Sequence record: MK327934.1
Reading direction: 5' to 3' (one strand)
Source: Escherichia phage vB_EcoM_G2469
Length of the DNA: 64,000 nt
This document shows positions 12,827-43,310 of this stretch, in pieces. The notes beneath the pieces are model-generated. The model was not told where the DNA came from. It searched no databases and saw only the letters and a program-made list of their open reading frames with translations. Both the position numbers and the translations under genes were made by a program. Numbering within the stretch: the stretch's first letter is position 1; the number at the start of each line of letters is the position of its first letter.

Positions 12827-13407
12827 TAAAAATTCAACATTTTCAAATGAATGATTTTGTATAATCGAGATAAAGGGTCATATTCTAAGTCTTCAATTTC
12901 CACAATCTCAAATCTAGAGATACCTGAAACCATGTACTCTTGTTCAGATTCAATCATATCTAGGACGTCAACACGCTTTTCTTCCATAACATGCTTAGGG
13001 TTCTTTCCGGCGAGTACAATGTTAACCATGTTTTGGTAGTAATCAAAAATGAATGGAGCATTCCTGAGACTAAGAATAGTGTACGTCTGATATTCCCAAC
13101 TCCCAGAGAACTGTCTGGCCGTACCAAAGTCTGTTGTAAACGATGTTACTCGTCCAGGAGACCAATGGCATCCAACAGAAAGAAGGGAAAGACGTTCTAC
13201 TTCTTCTGGAGTTACACCACGGTAGAGTTCTACTGGTACTGTAGAAGTCATATGCTTACGAACAAGATGGTCTAATTCATAGTGGAAATCTGGGTCTTCC
13301 TTAGAATCAGTGCAAGCCCAGAGAATGTTTTGTTCTTGTTTAGTGAATTTATCATCAATTAGTGCTGCGAGATATTCGCGTTCTTGAAGTTCAGATTGAC
13401 ATGTCAT
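12826..13407 (-). CDS. modB: ADP-ribosyltransferase ModB-like
   Basis: 193 aa; ART motifs YRG, SFTTDFG, EQEYMVSG. Confidence 0.65.
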   Translation of the reverse strand: MTCQSELQEREYLAALIDDKFTKQEQNILWACTDSKEDPDFHYELDHLVRKHMTSTVPVELYRGVTPEEVERLSLLSVGCHWSPGRVTSFTTDFGTARQFSGSWEYQTYTILSLRNAPFIFDYYQNMVNIVLAGKNPKHVMEEKRVDVLDMIESEQEYMVSGISRFEIVEIEDLEYDPLSRLYKIIHLKMLNF

Positions 13408-13434
13408 GATAGACCTCCATTTAAAGATAAGCCT

Positions 13435-13463
13435 ATCATAACACGAGAGGAGGGAATGTAAAC
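13435..13463 (-). promoter_or_regulatory. early-type promoter GTTTAC-N17-TATGAT
   Basis: upstream of modB; leader has ggagg SD. Confidence 0.5.
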
Positions 13464-13627
13464 TACTTTTTAAGCTTTCCTACTAAAGGTCCATCAGGGA
13501 CAGGTTGTTCTAACATGAATAACGATGCTTTAAAAAGCAATGTCAACCCTTTCACCATTCGATACCATGTCTCAAAGTCTTTTTCCTTGATTTCTAGTAA
13601 GAATTTCTCTTTAAATTTCTCTTTCAT
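13463..13627 (-). CDS. small hypothetical protein (54 aa), not in ORF track
   Basis: ATG overlaps upstream stop as ATGA. Confidence 0.3.
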   Translation of the reverse strand: MKEKFKEKFLLEIKEKDFETWYRMVKGLTLLFKASLFMLEQPVPDGPLVGKLKK

Positions 13628-15779: not shown

Positions 15780-15869
15780 TATTTTTTCCTTTCAATTCAG
15801 TAATAAGTGAGTTAATTCTAACATTAATTTTATAAAGCGTAATAAATAATAGGTAACTAAGGAGATATT

Positions 15870-16067
15870 ATGTTTAAACTTCCATCGTTAATCAACGCTA
15901 TTAAAGGCAATAAAAAGAAAACTGCTATCGCTGCAATAGTTGTAGGCGGCATTATTTCATGGAACTTCGGGATTGCGCCATTGTTAGTTGCCCATGGTAT
16001 TATAGTTCCTTCTGTTCCATTGGATACTGTAGTTGATTTGGCCTTTGCTATTGTAGGACTGGTTTAA
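15870..16067 (+). CDS. small hydrophobic membrane protein (65 aa) on plus strand
   Basis: strong SD taaggagatatt then ATG; two predicted TM segments; convergent with gene 61 (4-nt overlap). Confidence 0.4.
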   Translation: MFKLPSLINAIKGNKKKTAIAAIVVGGIISWNFGIAPLLVAHGIIVPSVPLDTVVDLAFAIVGLV

Positions 16068-17086
16068 ATCTTCGAATAACGAGATAATCTCATTTTAGCA
16101 TGCAACCCACTTGAAATATTCTGTTTCATATATTCTAAAATTTCTTGTGGTGTTGCATTTTCTTTCATTACCATATCATTCACATCCTTTGATCTCCATG
16201 GAGCTCGGTCCCAGAACATGACACGTTCGCCTGCATCAACTAATCGCTTCATGCGAGCTATAGTATCCGGATGCCTAGGTTCATTATCCATTACCCATAC
16301 CCGACGTTCTTTAAATGGTACCACATCTAAATCTATCGAGCCGCCTGTAATAGCGATTGCGTTTGGTATGAATAAACTATCAATAGGACCTTCCATTACC
16401 CAGACGTCCCCTTCCTTAACACGTTCAACACCATAAATTTTTGTTGCAGACTCAAACGCTTTAATAGTGATATATTTCTGAGGAGCATCTTTACGAAGTG
16501 CACGTCCTTGGAATGACTCGGCCTTCCCGTCTTTATTAAAAATAGGAATCACTAAACGTGGTTCGGGAATCTCTTTCTTATACGTACCGGGTTGAATCTT
16601 GTTGACCAATTTAGGCCATTCTAATGTGAACCATAATCTGTTCCACGATTCTTTAGGAATACACCGAGACTTAACATATTTCACAATAGGATGCTCTTCA
16701 GGCAACTTGTCCAGACGAGAACAAGACGGTAAAGAATTTATAGTCTTTTTCTCTGGCTCCGGCTTAGCTTCAGGAACCTTTTCAATCTTTGGTTCCATTC
16801 TAGCTTTTTCTTTACGAACTTCCATTAGATATTCGCGATAAAGCTCTTCATCATACTCTTTTAAGTATCCGGAAATTGTATTGTGGTATTGACAGTTATA
16901 GCAATGTACATTACCAGGAGTACCGCCATAATACCATCCGCGAGCTTTCATTGCATCTGTTTGGGAGTCGCCACAAACTGGACATCGAAATGTTAATTTA
17001 AATGTGCTTGAATTATTGATTTGTCTAAAACGAGGTAGGTGAGAAAACGCACGATAAGCAAATTCATTATCTATCCATTCAGCCAT
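16064..17086 (-). CDS. 61: DNA primase
   Basis: 340 aa; N-terminal zinc ribbon CPVCGDS...CYNC; T4 gp61-like. Confidence 0.9.
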   Translation of the reverse strand: MAEWIDNEFAYRAFSHLPRFRQINNSSTFKLTFRCPVCGDSQTDAMKARGWYYGGTPGNVHCYNCQYHNTISGYLKEYDEELYREYLMEVRKEKARMEPKIEKVPEAKPEPEKKTINSLPSCSRLDKLPEEHPIVKYVKSRCIPKESWNRLWFTLEWPKLVNKIQPGTYKKEIPEPRLVIPIFNKDGKAESFQGRALRKDAPQKYITIKAFESATKIYGVERVKEGDVWVMEGPIDSLFIPNAIAITGGSIDLDVVPFKERRVWVMDNEPRHPDTIARMKRLVDAGERVMFWDRAPWRSKDVNDMVMKENATPQEILEYMKQNISSGLHAKMRLSRYSKI

Positions 17087-22590: not shown

Positions 22591-23755
22591 CGAAATCTTC
22601 CATTTCGTCAAGGTCGTTTTCTATATCTGCTGCAGACGGAGCATCAGAAGTTTTAACCGGAACTTTAGTTGTTGCTTTGCAATTAATAAGGTCGTTAACA
22701 GCGTCATCAACTTCTTTAATAGAAGAGATAGCACCTAGTTTATATTTAGTTTCAATTGCATCTCGGAAAGGTTTGTGTTTAAACAAAGGTCCCCAGAATT
22801 CTACACAATCAGTAGCTTTAGCACGCCATGATTTTTCTTCACGAATCATTTCACCTGTTTCTTCGTCAAGGAATTCGCGAGCATACCAACCGGCTTTAGG
22901 CTTAACTACAAAACCAATTTCAGTTGCCATTTCTAACAAGCCACTGAATGGGTCAATACCGCCATCAAAATTAACCGTGATCGGGAAAGTAGATTTCTCT
23001 TTAACTGTACGAGATTTTTCCGCTTTCAACGTGAAGTCATAACCGGTCAATTCTGTACCTTCTTTAACCTGACGTTTAGAGATAAAAAATACCGTGTTGG
23101 CAGAATAAAGAATACCTGTACCACCGCCCATAATCTCTTTAGGATACAATCCGCCGATTTCCATTGCTGTATGGTTAATTGCAACACACGGAATATCTTT
23201 AATAGTCAGATAAGGAGTCACAATGCGGAACAGAGATTTAAGTGCCTTAGCACGAGACATATCACCTACAACTTTCTCGTTCAACGCATCTTCGGTTTCT
23301 TTCTTAGATGCAGTATTACCGATTGAATCGATAAAGATAATAACTTTATCACCGCGTTCAATAGCGTCAAGCTGATTAGTCATATCAACTTTAAGTTGTT
23401 CGACAGATTGAATCGGAGTATGAACTACACGGTCTAAATCAACACCCATTGAACGAAAATAAGATTCTGAAGCACCGAATTCTGAGTCATAAAACAAACA
23501 GATTGCATCTTTATATTTCTTCATATACGCTGCAACCATAGTTAGTCCAAACAACGTTTTAAAGTGTTTAGAAGGAGCAGCAAAAATAGTTAAGCCTGAT
23601 TGCAACCCTGCATTCAGTGCACCACCTAATGCGATATTCAACATCGGAATACGAGTAGGGACTTCATCACGATTATTAAACAGCTTAGACTTAGTCAAGT
23701 CTGCAGTCATTTTAGAAGTAGAAGCTTTAATCAGACGAGATTTTAAATCAGACAT
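22583..23755 (-). CDS. uvsX: UvsX recombinase (RecA-like)
   Basis: 390 aa; RecA-fold, T4 UvsX-like throughout. Confidence 0.95.
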   Translation of the reverse strand: MSDLKSRLIKASTSKMTADLTKSKLFNNRDEVPTRIPMLNIALGGALNAGLQSGLTIFAAPSKHFKTLFGLTMVAAYMKKYKDAICLFYDSEFGASESYFRSMGVDLDRVVHTPIQSVEQLKVDMTNQLDAIERGDKVIIFIDSIGNTASKKETEDALNEKVVGDMSRAKALKSLFRIVTPYLTIKDIPCVAINHTAMEIGGLYPKEIMGGGTGILYSANTVFFISKRQVKEGTELTGYDFTLKAEKSRTVKEKSTFPITVNFDGGIDPFSGLLEMATEIGFVVKPKAGWYAREFLDEETGEMIREEKSWRAKATDCVEFWGPLFKHKPFRDAIETKYKLGAISSIKEVDDAVNDLINCKATTKVPVKTSDAPSAADIENDLDEMEDFDE

Positions 23756-27513: not shown

Positions 27514-27915
27514 TTATAGATTCGGTTTATACGATTTAAATGTTTCGAATTCGCCTTTATTCATAAGAGCTTTGAATTCGTCAGGACGCATAGCTTTGTC
27601 GTCGATAATCCAATCATATACTGGTTTATGTGTTAGCAAATTATGGTACTTCAAGCCAATGTTTGCCAAGTTCTGAATCAGACTTGGGAGAATGTCAATT
27701 GCTATACGACCAGGACCTACTGACTTCATACCGCGAGCAGTGTAAAGCGTTATGGTATGCCCTGCATCATACAGGGCATTAATGGCAGACACCATTTCGA
27801 CGTCTGGTTTGAAGTTCACGTAATCACGATTGTTATTCCACTCTGTTATACAATCATCGACATCAAAACAAAGATTAAGCATGTTTTCTACACGGTGCAT
27901 TAGATTCGTTCCCAT
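27514..27915 (-). CDS. HAD-superfamily phosphatase (GmhB/KdsC-like)
   Basis: 133 aa; motif I FDVDDCIT near N-terminus; alternative start at 27900 in TAATG overlap. Confidence 0.6.
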   Translation of the reverse strand: MGTNLMHRVENMLNLCFDVDDCITEWNNNRDYVNFKPDVEMVSAINALYDAGHTITLYTARGMKSVGPGRIAIDILPSLIQNLANIGLKYHNLLTHKPVYDWIIDDKAMRPDEFKALMNKGEFETFKSYKPNL

Positions 27916-29585
27916 TGATGAGTGATATCGCCACCGATTGGACGATAGGAAACACCAGTTTCTTTATCAGTTAGTACCCATTTACCAGGATTTTTTGTAA
28001 TCAGAGTAGCCGTTACAGGTTCTGCTACGTCATAACTAATAGAGCCGTCCTGAAGTACACGGCCCATGTTACGTAATTGCTTAGTCAGAAGTTCCATACC
28101 TTTATAATATGCGGCTACCGCTTTAAGTGGATTATTCTTGAAATAACCACCTAATGCAATCCAGATAATTGCCACAGCCAAATGATGATATTCATTAAAC
28201 GAACTCAGCTTTCCATATTTGTAAACTAATGGATTGATGTTAATAGTCACATTACAAGTTGTTTCATCAATAGTAAACTGTCCCCAGGTCGGATTAGCAT
28301 TGAATTCATCATAACCTGAAACAGCATAAAGCACTTTAGCTTCATCATACAATTTTGGCCCGTAAATCTTGGTTTCACCAAAATATCCACGAGGGTCGAT
28401 AAATTTGACTTCGCCGTTATCAGTAATCATAGTATTACTGAAGTTCGGGTCACCATGAATAACAGAGTACTGTCCCTGAGAACGGTTATGATAACGAATA
28501 AGGTGTTCTAAAGCTTGTTTCAGCATTGGCTTCAGACGTCCAATCTTAGTGTAGTTCACATGTGTGATTTTACCAAATGAATCAATCAATGGTTGAATGC
28601 TTTCACAACGATCAATAACTTTCGTATAGAATTCTTTAGTGAAATCACGACGAACAGTTTCAGGACTTACAAAATAAGTGTCTGTGCTGAATTTCAGTGC
28701 ATCTAAAATTGCATCAACAATTTGTGGACGAGCAAGACTTGATTTGGATTTAATATATTCAAATGCCGGCTTACCTTTAATGCGTTCCATTTCAAAGTTA
28801 TTTTCATTAACAGAAACTAACTGAGGAACTGAATCTGATTTCACTTTAAGATACCATGAAATCTCATCTTTCTGAAGAGCTCGACCTTGTTCAGTTAATG
28901 CGAATTTAGTTACAGTTTCTTCACCAATTTCAACTGCATTAAAACTACGATTAAGTTCACGAACTTCATGAGCCTTTTCAAGTTTAGGCATATCACCAAG
29001 GTCGATGATATTCATAAGCTCTGATTTATTGAATGCGCCGCTGTAAAGGAATTCTACGAAATCACGTCCTTTGCAGTATTCATGAATTTCCTCATCGGTA
29101 GAACCCATGTAGAATTCCCAGTCTTTGAACTGGTAAATTCCCACAACATTACCACCTGTTGAACCTACGTTAGTGATATTTTCACCATCGAAATTATATC
29201 GACATTCGTCACCCTTAACATAGATTGCGTTAACATTCCAAGACCATGAACCAAAATCAGGAATAATATCACACCAGTTAACAATTACGTTATGGCCGTC
29301 TAAATCTTTGTGTAATTTAGCAAGAGCATAAGCAGAACCATACGCTTCATCGACTGTACGAATAGTCACATTGAACCCTTCTTGCTCACAATAAGCTCGA
29401 ACAGTTTCAGCAAATTTTGAATGAACTACTACAATAATTTCATCTGCGCCAAGGTCAGAATAAATTGTATACAAATTGCTCAGAATAGTGTCTTGTTTAT
29501 AGTTAACAAGCACCTTAGGAATATGGTGAGTAATTGGATATAAACGAGTTGCCAATCCAGCACCAAGAATAACAGCTTTTTTCAT
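27900..29585 (-). CDS. bifunctional sugar-phosphate nucleotidyltransferase / sugar kinase
   Basis: 561 aa; N-terminal MKKAVILGAGLATRL nucleotidyltransferase signature; C-terminal HGDPNFSN...IDPRG kinase motif. Confidence 0.75.
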   Translation of the reverse strand: MKKAVILGAGLATRLYPITHHIPKVLVNYKQDTILSNLYTIYSDLGADEIIVVVHSKFAETVRAYCEQEGFNVTIRTVDEAYGSAYALAKLHKDLDGHNVIVNWCDIIPDFGSWSWNVNAIYVKGDECRYNFDGENITNVGSTGGNVVGIYQFKDWEFYMGSTDEEIHEYCKGRDFVEFLYSGAFNKSELMNIIDLGDMPKLEKAHEVRELNRSFNAVEIGEETVTKFALTEQGRALQKDEISWYLKVKSDSVPQLVSVNENNFEMERIKGKPAFEYIKSKSSLARPQIVDAILDALKFSTDTYFVSPETVRRDFTKEFYTKVIDRCESIQPLIDSFGKITHVNYTKIGRLKPMLKQALEHLIRYHNRSQGQYSVIHGDPNFSNTMITDNGEVKFIDPRGYFGETKIYGPKLYDEAKVLYAVSGYDEFNANPTWGQFTIDETTCNVTININPLVYKYGKLSSFNEYHHLAVAIIWIALGGYFKNNPLKAVAAYYKGMELLTKQLRNMGRVLQDGSISYDVAEPVTATLITKNPGKWVLTDKETGVSYRPIGGDITHQWERI

Positions 29586-29626
29586 GTTGTGGTCCTCATT
29601 GGTAAGTAGGAGTATTGTACACTATT

Positions 29627-29770
29627 CTAGTTAAAGCATTCATACTTTGCTTGTAGTCCAATCATAATCCATCCAATTACAAGTGTTGGAATCATTACCG
29701 GAGCCGTTAAGCTCCAGTAGATAGTCATGACAAGCATCAATAGTAAAAGTCCTATTGTTATTGCTTTCAT
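29627..29770 (-). CDS. small membrane protein (47 aa), not in ORF track
   Basis: MKAITIGLLLLMLVMTIYW...; ATG overlaps upstream stop as ATGA. Confidence 0.35.
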   Translation of the reverse strand: MKAITIGLLLLMLVMTIYWSLTAPVMIPTLVIGWIMIGLQAKYECFN

Positions 29771-35209: not shown

Positions 35210-35951
35210 TTAGAAGTCGTGAGTAGAATCGGCTTCCATCGCAATAACATAACTTACTTGAGAGCTTTCAAACTTGGCTGCAACTTTATCACCAGCTCCC
35301 CACAACATTACTTTATAGTTACCTGGCTGGATTTTCATATTAGCCATATTGATTACGAAGTTAAAGTTGTTAGAACCATCATAATCGGTAAGAGTCAAAG
35401 AATACTTAGGACGAGTTAGTCCAGAATCTTCAACTTTATTATAGCCATTGATAACAATTTTACCATCTTTATTTGTAATAGCAATTGTATCAATCTGAAG
35501 ACCACGTGAAACTCGAAGTAATTGTTGAAGGTCTTCGGCTTTAATTTCAGTAATCACAGAAGCCACCGGGAATTGAATTGGCTTATTAGGAAAAACAATG
35601 GTGCTCTTGTCAGCGGCAGGCCAATAAACTGTGGAACGTGTATCTGCAATTTTAATATTGCCATCAGTGTGCATTGAAATTTCAGCATCATCAGACACTA
35701 GACTCAAAATGCTTAAGAAGCTATTCAAATCATAAAGTGCTATCATCAGACACTAGACTCAAAATGCTTAAGAAGCTATTCAAATCATAAAGTGCTACGT
35801 CAAAATCAATTTCATCAGAGATATTTGCTTCCGCATAAGTGGTGCCATTAACTGCACGAGTCATAATAAATTTACCTTGACTCAGCAGAATGCCGGAGTT
35901 AATAGAGGCGAAGTTTTTCAGAATAGCGATAGTATCTTTAGACAGTTTCAT
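35210..35951 (-). pseudogene. 45: sliding clamp gene 45, frameshifted by a 55-bp tandem duplication
   Basis: fragments 35951-35730 (MKLSKDTIAILK...) and 35746-35210 together match T4 gp45; both repeat ALYDLNSFLSILSLVSDD. Confidence 0.8.
35688..35797. repeat. perfect 55-bp direct tandem duplication (2 copies)
   Basis: 35688-35742 is identical to 35743-35797. Confidence 0.9.
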
Positions 35952-35993
35952 TTTATTTCCTTTCAAGACAATTAGAAGTTTATAACAAATTTA

Positions 35994-36691: not shown

Positions 36692-37408
36692 ATGAATTAT
36701 AACTCAATATACGAAAAGCTTATCACCAATGCTAAATCAAGAAGTTTAGATGGTTATACAGAACGTCATCACATTATACCACAATGTTTAGGTGGAAGTG
36801 ATGATGCTTTAAACTTAGTAGACTTAACACCGGAAGAACATTATTTGGCACATCAACTGTTGGTAAAAATCCATCCAGATAATGCCTCTTTAATATATGC
36901 CGCTCGTATGATGACCATATCATCTCCTAAAGCAGATAGAAGCAAAAACAAATTATTTGGATGGCTTCGACGTAAGAATCAAGAAGTTCAAAAGAACAAA
37001 GAATTCACTGCTGAAACCCGTAAGAAAATGTCTGAGTCTGCAAAAAATAAACCAAAGATTACATGTCCACACTGCGGTTTAACCGGCACTGAAGGAAACA
37101 TGAGACGTTGGCATTTTGATAACTGTAAACAAGGCCCTACGCCTAAAATAGTAAAACTTGATCAAGAAACAAAAGATAAAATAATTAAAACCATGGCCAC
37201 GAAAATTTGGAAAGAAGATTCTTGCCCGTTTTGTGGCTTAACTACTAAGTTATCGGCGTTAAAGCCACATATAAAATTCTGTAAATCAAATCCTAACAGA
37301 AAGAAAAAAGAGGACAAGAAAATTAAATGTCCTCATTGCGATAAAATAGGGATCCCTGCTAATATGCATCGTTGGCATTTTGATAACTGTAAACATAAGC
37401 CTCATTAA
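36692..37408 (+). CDS. HNH homing endonuclease with three C-terminal zinc-finger repeats
   Basis: 238 aa; HNH core ERHHIIPQCLGG...NLVDLTPEEHYLAH; CPHCG...RWHFDNCK repeated; opposite strand to neighbours. Confidence 0.75.
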   Translation: MNYNSIYEKLITNAKSRSLDGYTERHHIIPQCLGGSDDALNLVDLTPEEHYLAHQLLVKIHPDNASLIYAARMMTISSPKADRSKNKLFGWLRRKNQEVQKNKEFTAETRKKMSESAKNKPKITCPHCGLTGTEGNMRRWHFDNCKQGPTPKIVKLDQETKDKIIKTMATKIWKEDSCPFCGLTTKLSALKPHIKFCKSNPNRKKKEDKKIKCPHCDKIGIPANMHRWHFDNCKHKPH

Positions 37409-39093
37409 GAGGCTTTCATTACAGTAAATCGTCCAACTTTGCTCATTTGCAAATGTTGTCCATAAGCTTGTGGGTCATGGTCTCTGTGACTAATTATAAA
37501 CACGTTTGCATCGGTTAGAGAGTTAAGAATTGTTGAAATAGCTTTAATACCTTCAGAATCAGTCGCGGAATCCATGACTTCGTCCATAATTAATGTATTG
37601 ATTCTAACACCAGAGACCTTTTCAGCGATATCTCGCCATGTAAACAACAATGCGATATCGATACGTGCCTTTTCACCTTGACTAAATGAAGCATAACTGA
37701 ATTCTTCACGTCCACGTGATTTTATAGATTCATTGAATTCTTCGTCAATAGAAAACACGTAATCAGCTTCCATGATTTTAAGATAATGGTTAATCTGCTT
37801 GTTGAACAGAGGCACATATTTTTTAATGATAGCACCTTTAATACCAGAATCTTTTAACATATCTGTGATAATACCACGATGGTATTTTTCAAGAACGATA
37901 TCCGATTTTGTTTTAATGATTTTATCAAGTTCTTTTTGAAGCAAAGCTATCTCATCGGCATGGTCGATAAATTCCGCCGAGGCTTGTTCTATTGCAGCTT
38001 TAACTTTCTTAGCTTTATCAATAGTGGCAATCATTGCTTGTTTCTTGGTACGAATATCAGATGCAATGTCCTGTTTAGTCTTAACATTAGCTCTATATTC
38101 GTCCACTAGGACACTCAGATTATCTCTGTGACAGGTAAGTTGCTCGAATGAGTGATTACATTCATGAAGCTTATCGGTAATCTTAGAGACAATAGGATCA
38201 CCCTGGTGCAACTGTGATGCACAAGTAGGACATGTGCCGCCATCATGATACATCTTAATAACTTTGTTATATGAGTCAATTTTAGATTTAATCAAGAATG
38301 CTTCTTGTCCTATCTTGTTGAATGCCTCAGTAGGGTCTTCATCAAGAACGATATTAAGTAGTCGCTCATTAGCTTCTTCTATTTCTGCTTTTAATGAACG
38401 AGCTTCTTTGGCTAGGTCGTCATACATATTCTGTAGACGCGCTACATTATCACCAGATAATTTCTTTTGACGTTCGATATTCTCGTTATAAATCTTAATT
38501 TGTTGGATAACACCATCTTTCTTGGCATCGAGAACTTGTCCCTGGGAATTAAGTTCTCGAACTTGAGACTTATTGATTTTATCCATTTCAGCGAGTGTGC
38601 CGACTTCTAAAAGGTCTTCGACAAGTTTTCTACGAGCAGGGGTGCTAAGAGCCATGAAAGGGGTATACCCTGCCGTCCCAAGCACAACTATTTGTTTAAA
38701 AGACGCGTATGACATTCCGATGCTACGTTCAAATTCTTCTTGGAAGTCACGACTGCTGGCAGATTCATCGAGACGAACACCATCAACGGAGATTTCGAAA
38801 ATATTGGGCTTTTGGCCACGTCTAATGAAGTATTTTTTATCATCGAATTCCATCCAAAGCTCAACTAAGAGCTCTTTCTTGTTCGTGCTATTAATGATTT
38901 GTCCTTTCTTAACATCACGAAATGGTTTACCGAAAAGTCCGAAAGTAATGGCTTCTAACATCGTAGATTTACCACCGCCGTTTTTACCTGTGATTAAGGT
39001 CTTTTGGACTTTATCTAATTGGATATCGATAAAATTTTGCCCAACAGACATTATATTTTTATAACGAACACGATTTAATTTAAATGTTTTCAC
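37405..39093 (-). CDS. 46: recombination endonuclease subunit (Rad50/SbcC-like)
   Basis: 562 aa; GTG start; Walker A GKNGGGKST; T4 gp46-like. Confidence 0.9.
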   Translation of the reverse strand: MKTFKLNRVRYKNIMSVGQNFIDIQLDKVQKTLITGKNGGGKSTMLEAITFGLFGKPFRDVKKGQIINSTNKKELLVELWMEFDDKKYFIRRGQKPNIFEISVDGVRLDESASSRDFQEEFERSIGMSYASFKQIVVLGTAGYTPFMALSTPARRKLVEDLLEVGTLAEMDKINKSQVRELNSQGQVLDAKKDGVIQQIKIYNENIERQKKLSGDNVARLQNMYDDLAKEARSLKAEIEEANERLLNIVLDEDPTEAFNKIGQEAFLIKSKIDSYNKVIKMYHDGGTCPTCASQLHQGDPIVSKITDKLHECNHSFEQLTCHRDNLSVLVDEYRANVKTKQDIASDIRTKKQAMIATIDKAKKVKAAIEQASAEFIDHADEIALLQKELDKIIKTKSDIVLEKYHRGIITDMLKDSGIKGAIIKKYVPLFNKQINHYLKIMEADYVFSIDEEFNESIKSRGREEFSYASFSQGEKARIDIALLFTWRDIAEKVSGVRINTLIMDEVMDSATDSEGIKAISTILNSLTDANVFIISHRDHDPQAYGQHLQMSKVGRFTVMKAS

Positions 39094-39940
39094 TTAAATT
39101 TTTCCTCATGAATTCAGAAACTAAAGCCTGTAAAGAACTTTGTATAGGATATCCTAAATTGACTAAATTTTTAGAAAAAGTCACATATTTAGGTTTGTTC
39201 ATTTTAACCCATTCAACGTAAAGCATATCAAAATTTTCCCAATGATATCCTTTTCTTCTAGATTTCAAATGAGTGTCTCTAACTTTAGGATTTTTCCAAC
39301 TGCGTGAAACTCCAGCCGATAATGATTCTCTATATTCGGCTGTTTTAGATATTTTACGACAAGCATCCAAATGTTTTTGTTTATTAATAGGGTCACTAAA
39401 CCACTTTTGGGTCATAATAGAGACGGTTTCTTTAAATTCCTTTGAACTTGTCATAATTCTGTGTTTCTTTAAATTTTCCGGATTTTTAAACCATGCTTTT
39501 AAAGCTTGACTAATCTTAATTCTATTATCCTGATTGGAATAGTATAATGTCATTTTTATAGAATTAACTTTACAAACATTTTCGAATTCTAAAGAATACG
39601 CCTCGGCTATATTATTTAGTTCATGCGTTGTACAATTTAAATTAAATCGCCCGGTATACATTCTTTGAAGCGCGTTAATCATCTTATGGTTGCCAGTTTT
39701 TGCCAAAATGCTATGTGCAATAAAATGGTTATAATGACTTAAATGACACAAGTTCCATTTACATGTTTTAAAATCTGGAAAAATAGATTTTGGTAGTATA
39801 TGGTGAACCTGAGTCAGTCCTTTTACTTTATTAGTGGAATTAGTTTTTATAAAGTTTAAATACTCATCAAGTCCTTCCCACGAAGGGAAGGAGGTTTTAA
39901 GAATTTTATAAATTTGAGTTTCATAATCAGTCTTCGTCAT
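39080..39940 (-). CDS. HNH-like endonuclease
   Basis: HNH-like stretch QVHHILPKSIF...NLCHLSHYNHFIAH; start set to ATG 39938-39940 with gagga SD. Confidence 0.55.
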   Translation of the reverse strand: MTKTDYETQIYKILKTSFPSWEGLDEYLNFIKTNSTNKVKGLTQVHHILPKSIFPDFKTCKWNLCHLSHYNHFIAHSILAKTGNHKMINALQRMYTGRFNLNCTTHELNNIAEAYSLEFENVCKVNSIKMTLYYSNQDNRIKISQALKAWFKNPENLKKHRIMTSSKEFKETVSIMTQKWFSDPINKQKHLDACRKISKTAEYRESLSAGVSRSWKNPKVRDTHLKSRRKGYHWENFDMLYVEWVKMNKPKYVTFSKNLVNLGYPIQSSLQALVSEFMRKNLSENI

Positions 39941-41988: not shown

Positions 41989-42204
41989 TTATCTCATTAA
42001 ATTAAAATAAAAACGTCCATCCTCTTCAATACAGAACTCATATTCAACTGGAGTCCCGTTTATCGAAAATGACACGTCATGTGGGTTCAAAGGGTCGATG
42101 TCAAAATTAATTTTAAATTCACGACCCAACAGTTTTACCAAATAAGGGATTGCTTCGTCAAAAGGTTCTTCTAAGTAGTTAGAGATGTCAATTGTCATCC
42201 TCAT
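41989..42204 (-). CDS. small hypothetical protein
   Basis: track ORF extends into gene 55; start set to internal ATG near 42198-42204. Confidence 0.4.
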
Positions 42205-42745
42205 ATAAAAAATCCAAACTAGGCGAATCGCTAACAACTTCCTTCTTTTCAGCCCCAGGAGCTTTATAAGCGGATTCTTCATAATGCGTCATTTTATCGT
42301 AGATGTCTTGAATAAACGTTTCATCTACCAACGCTACCATATCATCGTCATGACTGTCGTAGACATTATGAACGAAGTAACTATATTTCTTTGCAACTTC
42401 CTTACGTTCTTTTTTGATACGTTGGACAAAAGCATTAAAACAAGCTCGAGTTATGTATGCATGTGGGTTATTGTACTTAGTTTCGTCGAAATTATGAAGT
42501 CCCTTAATAGAGGCTTCAATCCCATCTGCAATCATCTCCTGCTTCCAAGACTGGGTATATCCTGAAAAGTTGAAACGTTTGGACAGGCCTTCGGCGATAA
42601 GCATAATTGCTAAACCGATGGTATCATTCTGACGAATAATTTTGTTTGGGTCTTTATTATTTAAGAGCTCCTTTTTCCACTCGATTATAGCGGCGAGAAG
42701 CTCTTTATTATTCACATAGTTATTTTTAGGTTTTTGTTCAGTCAT
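42188..42745 (-). CDS. 55: late-transcription sigma factor
   Basis: T4 gp55-like throughout; start at ATG 42743-42745 gives 185 aa as in T4. Confidence 0.85.
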
Positions 42746-42764
42746 AAGTACCTCTTGGCTCAAT

Positions 42765-42815
42765 TCATAGGTCTATTATATCATAATATTTAGAGACCTA
42801 TCTTAAAGCACGAGA
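42765..42815 (-). promoter_or_regulatory. promoter region for gene 55 (MotA-box-like TGCTTTA and TATAAT flanked by ataggtct/agacctat inverted repeat)
   Basis: read on minus strand. Confidence 0.4.
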
Positions 42816-42817
42816 TA

Positions 42818-43086
42818 CTATCGGAGCAAACAATAAGCCTGAAACACTTTTTCCATTAAACGTTTGAACTCATGGATATCGATATAAAGCTCAGTAAGAC
42901 CGGCATTATAAAGAAAATCTAAAAAGTTCTCATGTGTTTCGTTATAGTCGCCTTCGTTTAATTGAGATACATGAGTTTCCCAAAAACCAACACCTTTAAC
43001 GAATGGAAATACGTGACTTTCATGTATTCGTCAACATAAAATTCGCCCAGCTTTTCTTCAGTTATACTGATTCGAGTTAATTTCAT
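42818..43086 (-). pseudogene. probable frameshifted small gene (about 88 codons across two frames)
   Basis: ATG at 43084-43086 in ATGA overlap opens 42 codons; a 70-codon open frame with no start codon continues in the +2 frame to 42818. Confidence 0.35.
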
Positions 43087-43310
43087 TCTAGTTCCTTTGC
43101 TGCTTCAAGAGCAGCATCCAGCGAATCAAATTGGTCAACGAAATCAATATTCAACGCATCGTCAACCGTAGCATATAACCACCATTGTTTGAATTCGTAT
43201 TCTAGAATAAATCCAGGACCTTCAATCTGAGGAAGACCTAGACTATTTGTACCAACTTCGTAACCAGCTAGACGCAGGTCATTAATCAAAGTTTCTGTTA
43301 ATACGCTCAT
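43083..43310 (-). CDS. small acidic hypothetical protein
   Basis: 75-aa ORF, ATG start. Confidence 0.5.
   Translation of the reverse strand: MSVLTETLINDLRLAGYEVGTNSLGLPQIEGPGFILEYEFKQWWLYATVDDALNIDFVDQFDSLDAALEAAKELE

Follow-up and report, generated by a model that had tools for sequence, protein, structure and literature searches.

The window analysed here, a 64,000-nt stretch of the record of Escherichia phage vB_EcoM_G2469 (MK327934.1), is the initial 64 kb of the genome of a T4-like Mosigvirus in the RB69 / JS09 / mar005P1 group. It starts at the rIIA end and carries nearly all of its genes on the minus strand, where ORFs of at least 50 aa cover about 94% of the sequence, and its best deposited relatives are 97-98% identical to it over 24-kb stretches. 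Positions 42764-43082 (319 nt), upstream of gene 55, constitute the largest stretch of the window with neither a coding-strand ORF of at least 50 aa nor an opposite-strand ORF, and the gap of some 320 bp that a preliminary description had called unusual is indeed exceptional for this genome. An opposite-strand gene at the locus was considered and rejected, as the plus strand offers ORFs of merely 21-25 aa. Only one other such ORF-free gap longer than 200 nt is found in the window, at 15780-16063. This second-largest ORF-poor gap (284 nt, between genes 56 and 61) differs from mar007P3 by four single-base indels, and relatives annotate an opposite-strand ORF of 65 aa there (15872..16069 in one relative). 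The features of the locus upstream of gene 55 are the following:

43083-43310, minus strand: gp55.1 homologue (DUF5495), the upstream neighbour, 71% identical to T4 gp55.1, its stop codon and the start codon of the broken gene overlapping as ATGA
42818-43086, minus strand: frameshifted orthologue of RB69ORF072c (DUF7200 / PHROG 1822), 270 nt and 89 aa once one T is restored
42958-43086, minus strand: the ORF actually open, 42 aa, consisting of 27 native residues (MKLTRISITEEKLGEFYVDEYMKVTYF) and 15 out-of-frame residues (HSLKVLVFGKLMYLN), then TAA
43007-43009, minus strand: the lesion, a T3 run that is T4 in relatives, according to alignments, indel lists and the allele tally
42818-43006, minus strand: the C-terminal coding part left stranded in the -1 frame (native residues 28-89), according to translation and alignment
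42983-42987, minus strand: a second homopolymer, T5 in GGTTTTTGGG, intact in the window (coordinates counted, within a base)
42188-42745, minus strand: gene 55 (late sigma factor), the downstream neighbour, intact and with its own RBS, according to the annotations of relatives

The 72-nt spacer before gene 55 contains putative promoter elements, TGCTTTA at 42810-42804 and TATAAT at 42780-42775; a promoter scan gave a site count no higher than in shuffled sequences.

The TGA of the gp55.1 homologue overlaps an ATG at 43086-43084, an ATGA coupling on the minus strand that had already been pointed out, and this ATG opens the 42 codons counted earlier, which end at TAA 42960-42958. A second frame, shifted by +2 (that is, -1), contains 70 open codons, which begin just after a TGA (about 43030) and end with the TAG 42820-42818, in agreement with the preliminary description; it overlaps the zero frame by 24 codons. 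It had been said to have no ATG, GTG or TTG start, which is effectively right: the first such codon stands 12 codons ahead of the stop, and the ORF list has no entry of at least 20 aa in this frame. The exact 42-aa product of the window is on record in no public assembly, and the same is true of its exact gp47.

Relatives annotate a 270-nt CDS at exactly the position of the gap. Its product, at exactly 89 aa, falls within the 85-90 aa foreseen for a joined protein and equals the first 27 codons of the window's gene followed by codons of the -1 frame; the 70 out-of-frame codons correspond to residues 20-89 of the DUF7200 family protein. The repaired protein of the window is 100% identical to proteins of NBG1, HX01, JS09, CEV1 and other phages. 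It matches Pfam DUF7200 (PF23830) from end to end (1-89/89, E = 3.5e-34, 117.5 bits with a cut-off of 27), as it does PHROG 1822 (1-89/89, E = 9.1e-37), and this full-length match to DUF7200 needs both frames, so that the family is present in the window in disrupted form only. Pfam and PHROG both label the family as of unknown function, and no paper on RB69ORF072c or DUF7200 was found in the literature.

The family is widespread. A tblastn search with the repaired protein retrieved 894 phage records, 887 of them with at least 80% coverage, at identities ranging between about 30% and 100%. In Mosigvirus, Tequatrovirus, Gaprivervirus, Dhakavirus, Jiaodavirus, and Winklervirus the gene is a single CDS of 264-276 nt located just upstream of gene 55. 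The preliminary description had proposed alignment with relatives, whose sharing of the two-frame arrangement would have spoken against a broken gene; in these six genera one intact CDS was found instead. The order 55.1, DUF7200 gene, 55 is maintained in RB69, p000v, phiD1, ACG-C40, KIT01, and 10 independent contigs. The DUF7200 gene also lies just upstream of gene 55 in UPEC07, Vettismorki and Klebsiella phage 15882-6-2, adjacency to 55.1 being established for the other genomes only, and Klebsiella phage 15882-6-2 has one extra ORF in between. All 10 independent contigs encoding the window's exact gp55.1 (from NCBI, ENA metagenomes, and Logan) carry an intact 89-aa gene. A 54-aa protein of Salmonella phage SHP1 (MWKSHISKYN...AYCLLR) matches only the C-terminal 61% of the family; it may be a further disrupted copy, or its start may have been called wrongly.

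The difference between the window and these relatives was located to a single base. The window reads CACGTATTTCC, with TTT at 43009-43007, where every relative examined reads CACGTATTTTCC; in the alignment, CACGTA-TTTCC of the window faces CACGTATTTTCC in NBG1, S143_2, HX01, mar009P5, WFbE185, and RB69. Over 311 nt the missing T is the sole difference from NBG1 and S143_2, and the same 1-nt gap recurs in the comparisons with mar009P5 and with WFbE185. A megablast search with a 701-nt query found 171 phage records, nearly all of the matches listed spanning 702 nt. At the codon level, TAT TTT CCA of the relatives becomes TAT TTC CAT in the window, with codon 27 changed from TTT to TTC and the next codon from CCA to CAT. 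A second, compensating indel was rejected, the 311-nt alignment having one gap only. The gene of the window is not one uninterrupted frame, 42 codons being open after the 1-nt deletion. The earlier suggestion of one small gene split by an indel of one or two nucleotides, through mutation or sequencing error, is upheld, the indel being one T missing relative to relatives.

The region behind the lesion bears the marks of protein-coding sequence. Selection was estimated by the Nei-Gojobori method, and values are cited where dS was unsaturated. For codons 28-89, the comparison of the window with p000v gave 11.3 synonymous (Sd) and 3.7 nonsynonymous (Nd) differences, and a dN/dS of 0.06; the same codons gave 0.12 for RB69 against p000v and 0.25 for phiD1 against ACG-C40. 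Judged by these ratios of about 0.06-0.25, the downstream part of the gene in relatives is under purifying selection. A downstream frame evolving without coding constraint had been named as an observation that would count against a split gene; the opposite was found. An alignment of 18 family members has 15 invariant residues (M1, G14, F16, M22, W36, H39, S41, N44, Y48, E73, F74, E79, F82, Q83, and Y85), and all 15 are present in the repaired two-frame translation. A non-coding downstream frame was rejected on the dN/dS values together with the full-length HMM match.

A split gene with two overlapping frames may also be read as a recoding site, in which programmed or efficient -1 ribosomal frameshifting, or transcriptional slippage, joins the frames, with the 42-aa peptide perhaps as a second product. 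The 24-codon overlap would allow this, and it offers two candidate places for re-pairing of the P-site tRNA-Phe: U_UUC at 43009-43006, and GUU_UUU_G in the T5 run, which precedes a GGG codon and where a slip would give a near-wild-type protein. That frameshift mutants can be leaky is well established (PMC5009743). The zero-frame overlap (about 43030-42958) reads ...TAT TTC CAT TCG TTA AAG GTG TTG GTT TTT GGG AAA CTC... and provides single-tRNA slip sites only (U_UUC and U_UUU), without a canonical X_XXY_YYZ heptamer. The RNA downstream has a minimum free energy of -21.5 kcal/mol versus a shuffle mean of -18.1 kcal/mol (z = -1.14, with 27 of 200 shuffles as good), pseudoknots lying outside the model, and a search of Rfam returned chance-level matches only. 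Runs of A3/T3 are far too short for polymerase slippage, which counts against the transcriptional version. The split occurs in no other genome, and relatives identical elsewhere in the gene use one frame; the single-frame gene of relatives implies that the split is derived. The programmed frameshift that had been mentioned as a possibility finds no support: it was rejected for lack of an in-register heptamer, significant structure (fold z = -1.1), an Rfam family, and a conserved split, and recoding of any efficient kind is exceedingly improbable here.

The T3 allele is rare to the point of being unique. Among 120 phage records containing the window's 121-nt segment there was no 100% match, and the extra base was present in all 60 of these records that were listed. 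IMG/VR contained no T3 and one T4 copy, and the metagenome matches had T4 in 3/3 cases. In the tally of fetched loci, scored for the two homopolymers, the combination (T4, T5) was found 17 times and (T4, T6) three times, (T3, T5) being that of the window alone. As far as these collections reach, the T3 allele is private to the window record.

Other inactive alleles of the same gene exist. A protein search led to a 48-aa cluster (MKL...GVGF followed by LGNSCISIKRRRL), which at the DNA level corresponds to a T5→T6 insertion in GGTTTTTGGG, the next homopolymer of the DUF7200 gene. This allele was found in Escherichia phage ECO111 5-P (OR844765.1, 1501-1647 of the fetched locus), in the ENA metagenome assembly ERZ27275920, and in the Logan SRA assembly SRR10084837. 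The copies in ERZ27275920 and SRR10084837 are identical to each other and 95-98% identical to OR844765; the presence of T6 in three independent assemblies and two backgrounds shows that the allele is real, at a frequency of 1/118 deposited records. Phage F2 (MN864145.1), the closest relative of the window over a 24-kb stretch, has only a decayed and unannotated remnant of the gene, at about 22693-22847 (window 42823-43086), with a diverged 5' part, an in-frame TAA at codon 17, and a 186-bp deletion equivalent to window 42823-43008. The F2 deletion begins right at the T run of the 1-nt deletion of the window. In T4 the DUF7200 gene is missing, genes 55 and 55.1 being just 36 nt apart; T4 gp55.1 corresponds to the DUF5495 neighbour and has no similarity to DUF7200. 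In all, at least three independent inactivations (T3 of the window, T6 in two backgrounds, and the nonsense codon plus deletion of F2) were recognized in about 120 closely related genomes. To judge from these alleles, the DUF7200 gene, whose loss has occurred repeatedly, is dispensable.

The missing T may be a property of the phage or of its sequence record. In a sequencing or consensus error, the phage would truly be T4 with an intact 89-aa gene, and the T would have been dropped in base calling, assembly or polishing. Several observations are of the kind that such an error would produce: the allele is private, being absent from the 120 phage records, IMG/VR, metagenomes, and the 10 independent contigs; the site of the lesion is a homopolymer; outside it the gene is undecayed; and the same record contains an uncorrected assembly artefact in the essential gene 45 (see below), a sign of imperfect curation. 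On the other side stands the distribution of indels along the record. When the window was compared with mar007P3, mar009P5, WFbE185, and F2, all the other indels of a length not divisible by three fell in intergenic spacers (examples are those at about 12054, 15782-15851, 20792, 27462, and 53991). Since about 94% of the window is coding, this distribution indicates that indel errors are very rare in the record. The intergenic-only placement appears, from the alignments, as the pattern of real variation filtered by selection and not of random errors. A consensus error is further disfavoured by the natural frameshift and deletion alleles of the DUF7200 gene seen by independent projects. Near the boundary of regA and gene 62 (F2 about 13238-13615), F2 has one G more than the window (at about 33196); its annotated regA CDS exceeds that of mar009P5 by 9 nt and runs into gene 62. 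An indel error or variant of F2, not of the window, is a possible explanation.

The artefact in gene 45 also bears on how the record was made. An exact 55-nt tandem duplication at window 35687-35796 splits this essential sliding-clamp gene, on the minus strand, into ORFs 35730..35966 (78 aa) and 35210..35746 (178 aa), and the removal of one 55-nt copy gives an intact gp45 of 228 aa. The duplication was absent from F2, mar009P5, WFbE185, and the relatives listed of 153 records. WFbE185 (MK373778.1) likewise contains an exact tandem duplication of 55 nt, located elsewhere (29349-29458); a gene that is one 1686-nt CDS in mar009P5 is divided there into CDSs 27905..29410 and 29391..29645. According to the source paper of WFbE185 and its sister genomes, assembly was done by SPAdes with k = 55 and T4-like contigs were re-arranged. 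In all likelihood the gene 45 duplication is a SPAdes k = 55 overlap that escaped trimming where the ends of a circular contig met, the genome having been rotated to rIIA; if it were real, a split clamp or a ribosome bypass would be needed as explanation. In short-read data at phage-level coverage, a 4-nt homopolymer is seldom miscalled in the consensus. The 55-nt signature, which points to SPAdes on short reads, accordingly makes a miscalled T run uncommon and speaks against a consensus error. Such an error is a serious candidate, rated the less probable of the two origins of the missing base, and the loss of the T as a real and recent mutation in the phage is favoured, with a probability of roughly 0.6.

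Near gene 45, a 238-aa ORF with H-N-H-like motifs lies on the plus strand at window 36692-37408, between 45.2 and 46; F2 has a 'putative homing endonuclease' annotated at this site, where mar009P5 and WFbE185 have no gene. The segment at about 39092-39919, adjoining gene 46, is unalignable to mar009P5 or WFbE185, and a MobD-like endonuclease is annotated there in F2. Both sites look like presence/absence polymorphisms of mobile endonucleases.

The effect of the truncation may be judged from a predicted structure. An AlphaFold2 model built from the 18-member alignment (pLDDT 93.9, pTM 0.83) has four β-strands (residues 5-10, 14-19, 23-28, and 36-39) followed by two helices (48-61 and 71-88). 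The break after residue 27 falls behind strand 3 of this predicted β4-α2 fold, and the 42-aa product lacks what lies beyond the frameshift: the fourth strand, the two helices, and 11 of the 15 invariant residues. From the model and the alignment, the 42-aa product is expected to be inactive, making the window's copy a putative loss-of-function allele. A Foldseek search of the DUF7200 model against the PDB gave no significant match (best E = 0.41), and a fold search of BFVD found uncharacterised family members only.

The following course of events is proposed. One T would have been lost from the T4 run of the DUF7200 gene. In the sequence as it stands, a ribosome that initiates at the ATG translates 27 native codons and then 15 in the wrong frame before it meets TAA 42960-42958, and residues 28-89 remain unmade. 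The loss was presumably very recent, since outside the lesion the gene agrees with intact alleles at every base, and was presumably tolerated as a loss in a gene that the phage can do without. A real variant in the stock that was sequenced would be likelier than a base-calling error. A rare spontaneous -1 slip of the P-site tRNA-Phe on U_UUC (43009-43006) would restore the exact wild-type protein; leakage of this sort would be accidental rather than programmed, and presumably low. The 320-nt 'gap' is thus a true coding gene, the Mosigvirus orthologue of RB69ORF072c (DUF7200), a non-essential accessory gene probably broken by a recent and real loss of one T.

A real mutation may also have been selected. 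In this special case of the preferred reading, whose probability was assessed independently of the others, the frameshift would have been favoured because making the DUF7200 protein does harm to the phage on its propagation host, where a defence system might, for instance, sense it. The number of inactivations, counted for this one gene as at least three independent ones in about 120 closely related genomes, and the absence of the gene from T4 agree with such selection; the drift of dispensable genes in laboratory stocks fits the data equally well. Selection on the family is purifying, not diversifying, and the fold searches (PDB and BFVD) gave no similarity to a known defence trigger. Selected loss is considered unlikely. 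A broader version, in which short T runs would be recurrent inactivation points, the loss of DUF7200 would be selected repeatedly in Mosigvirus through hosts that sense the protein or are protected through it, and U_UUC slippage would keep up a trickle of product, is more unlikely still. If repeated selected loss did occur, the DUF7200 gene would become a candidate for a factor in host interaction or for a trigger of defence.

What the locus shows is a plain one-base frameshift in a phage gene family that is known, widely conserved, and dispensable. For annotation, this means that the stretch upstream of gene 55 should be described as a disrupted DUF7200 gene, and neither as intergenic DNA nor as a recoding site. 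That the gene can be lost is useful for the choice of deletable or replaceable genes in engineered Mosigvirus phages. As to data quality, the window record (at gene 45) and MK373778.1 would both benefit from correction of their 55-nt duplications.

Three known systems may be compared with the locus. With the orthologues of RB69ORF072c (RB69 AAP75974.1, NBG1 AWM11878.1, and HX01 AFU20411.1) the window shares the position between 55.1 and 55 and the ATGA-coupled start. Its 269 nt are identical to those of NBG1 save for the missing T, and its repaired protein is 96.6% identical to that of RB69. The window copy differs from these orthologues in being out of frame from codon 28 and in yielding only 42 aa. 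Programmed -1 frameshifting in phage genes (reviewed in PMC5009743) is exemplified by the tail assembly chaperone G/GT of lambda-like phages. There, as in the window, two frames of one gene overlap and the overlap is U-rich; in contrast to G/GT, the window has no canonical heptamer, stimulator or conserved split, and no second functional product is expected from it. The closest parallel in kind of lesion is the T6 allele of ECO111 5-P and the two assemblies that share it, in which the same gene has suffered the same type of ±1 change in a short T run, with the sequence otherwise undecayed. The T6 run is located 8 codons further on and the change is an insertion giving a 48-aa product, whereas that of the window is a deletion giving 42 aa; three independent sequencing projects bear witness to T6, and a single one to the T3 of the window.
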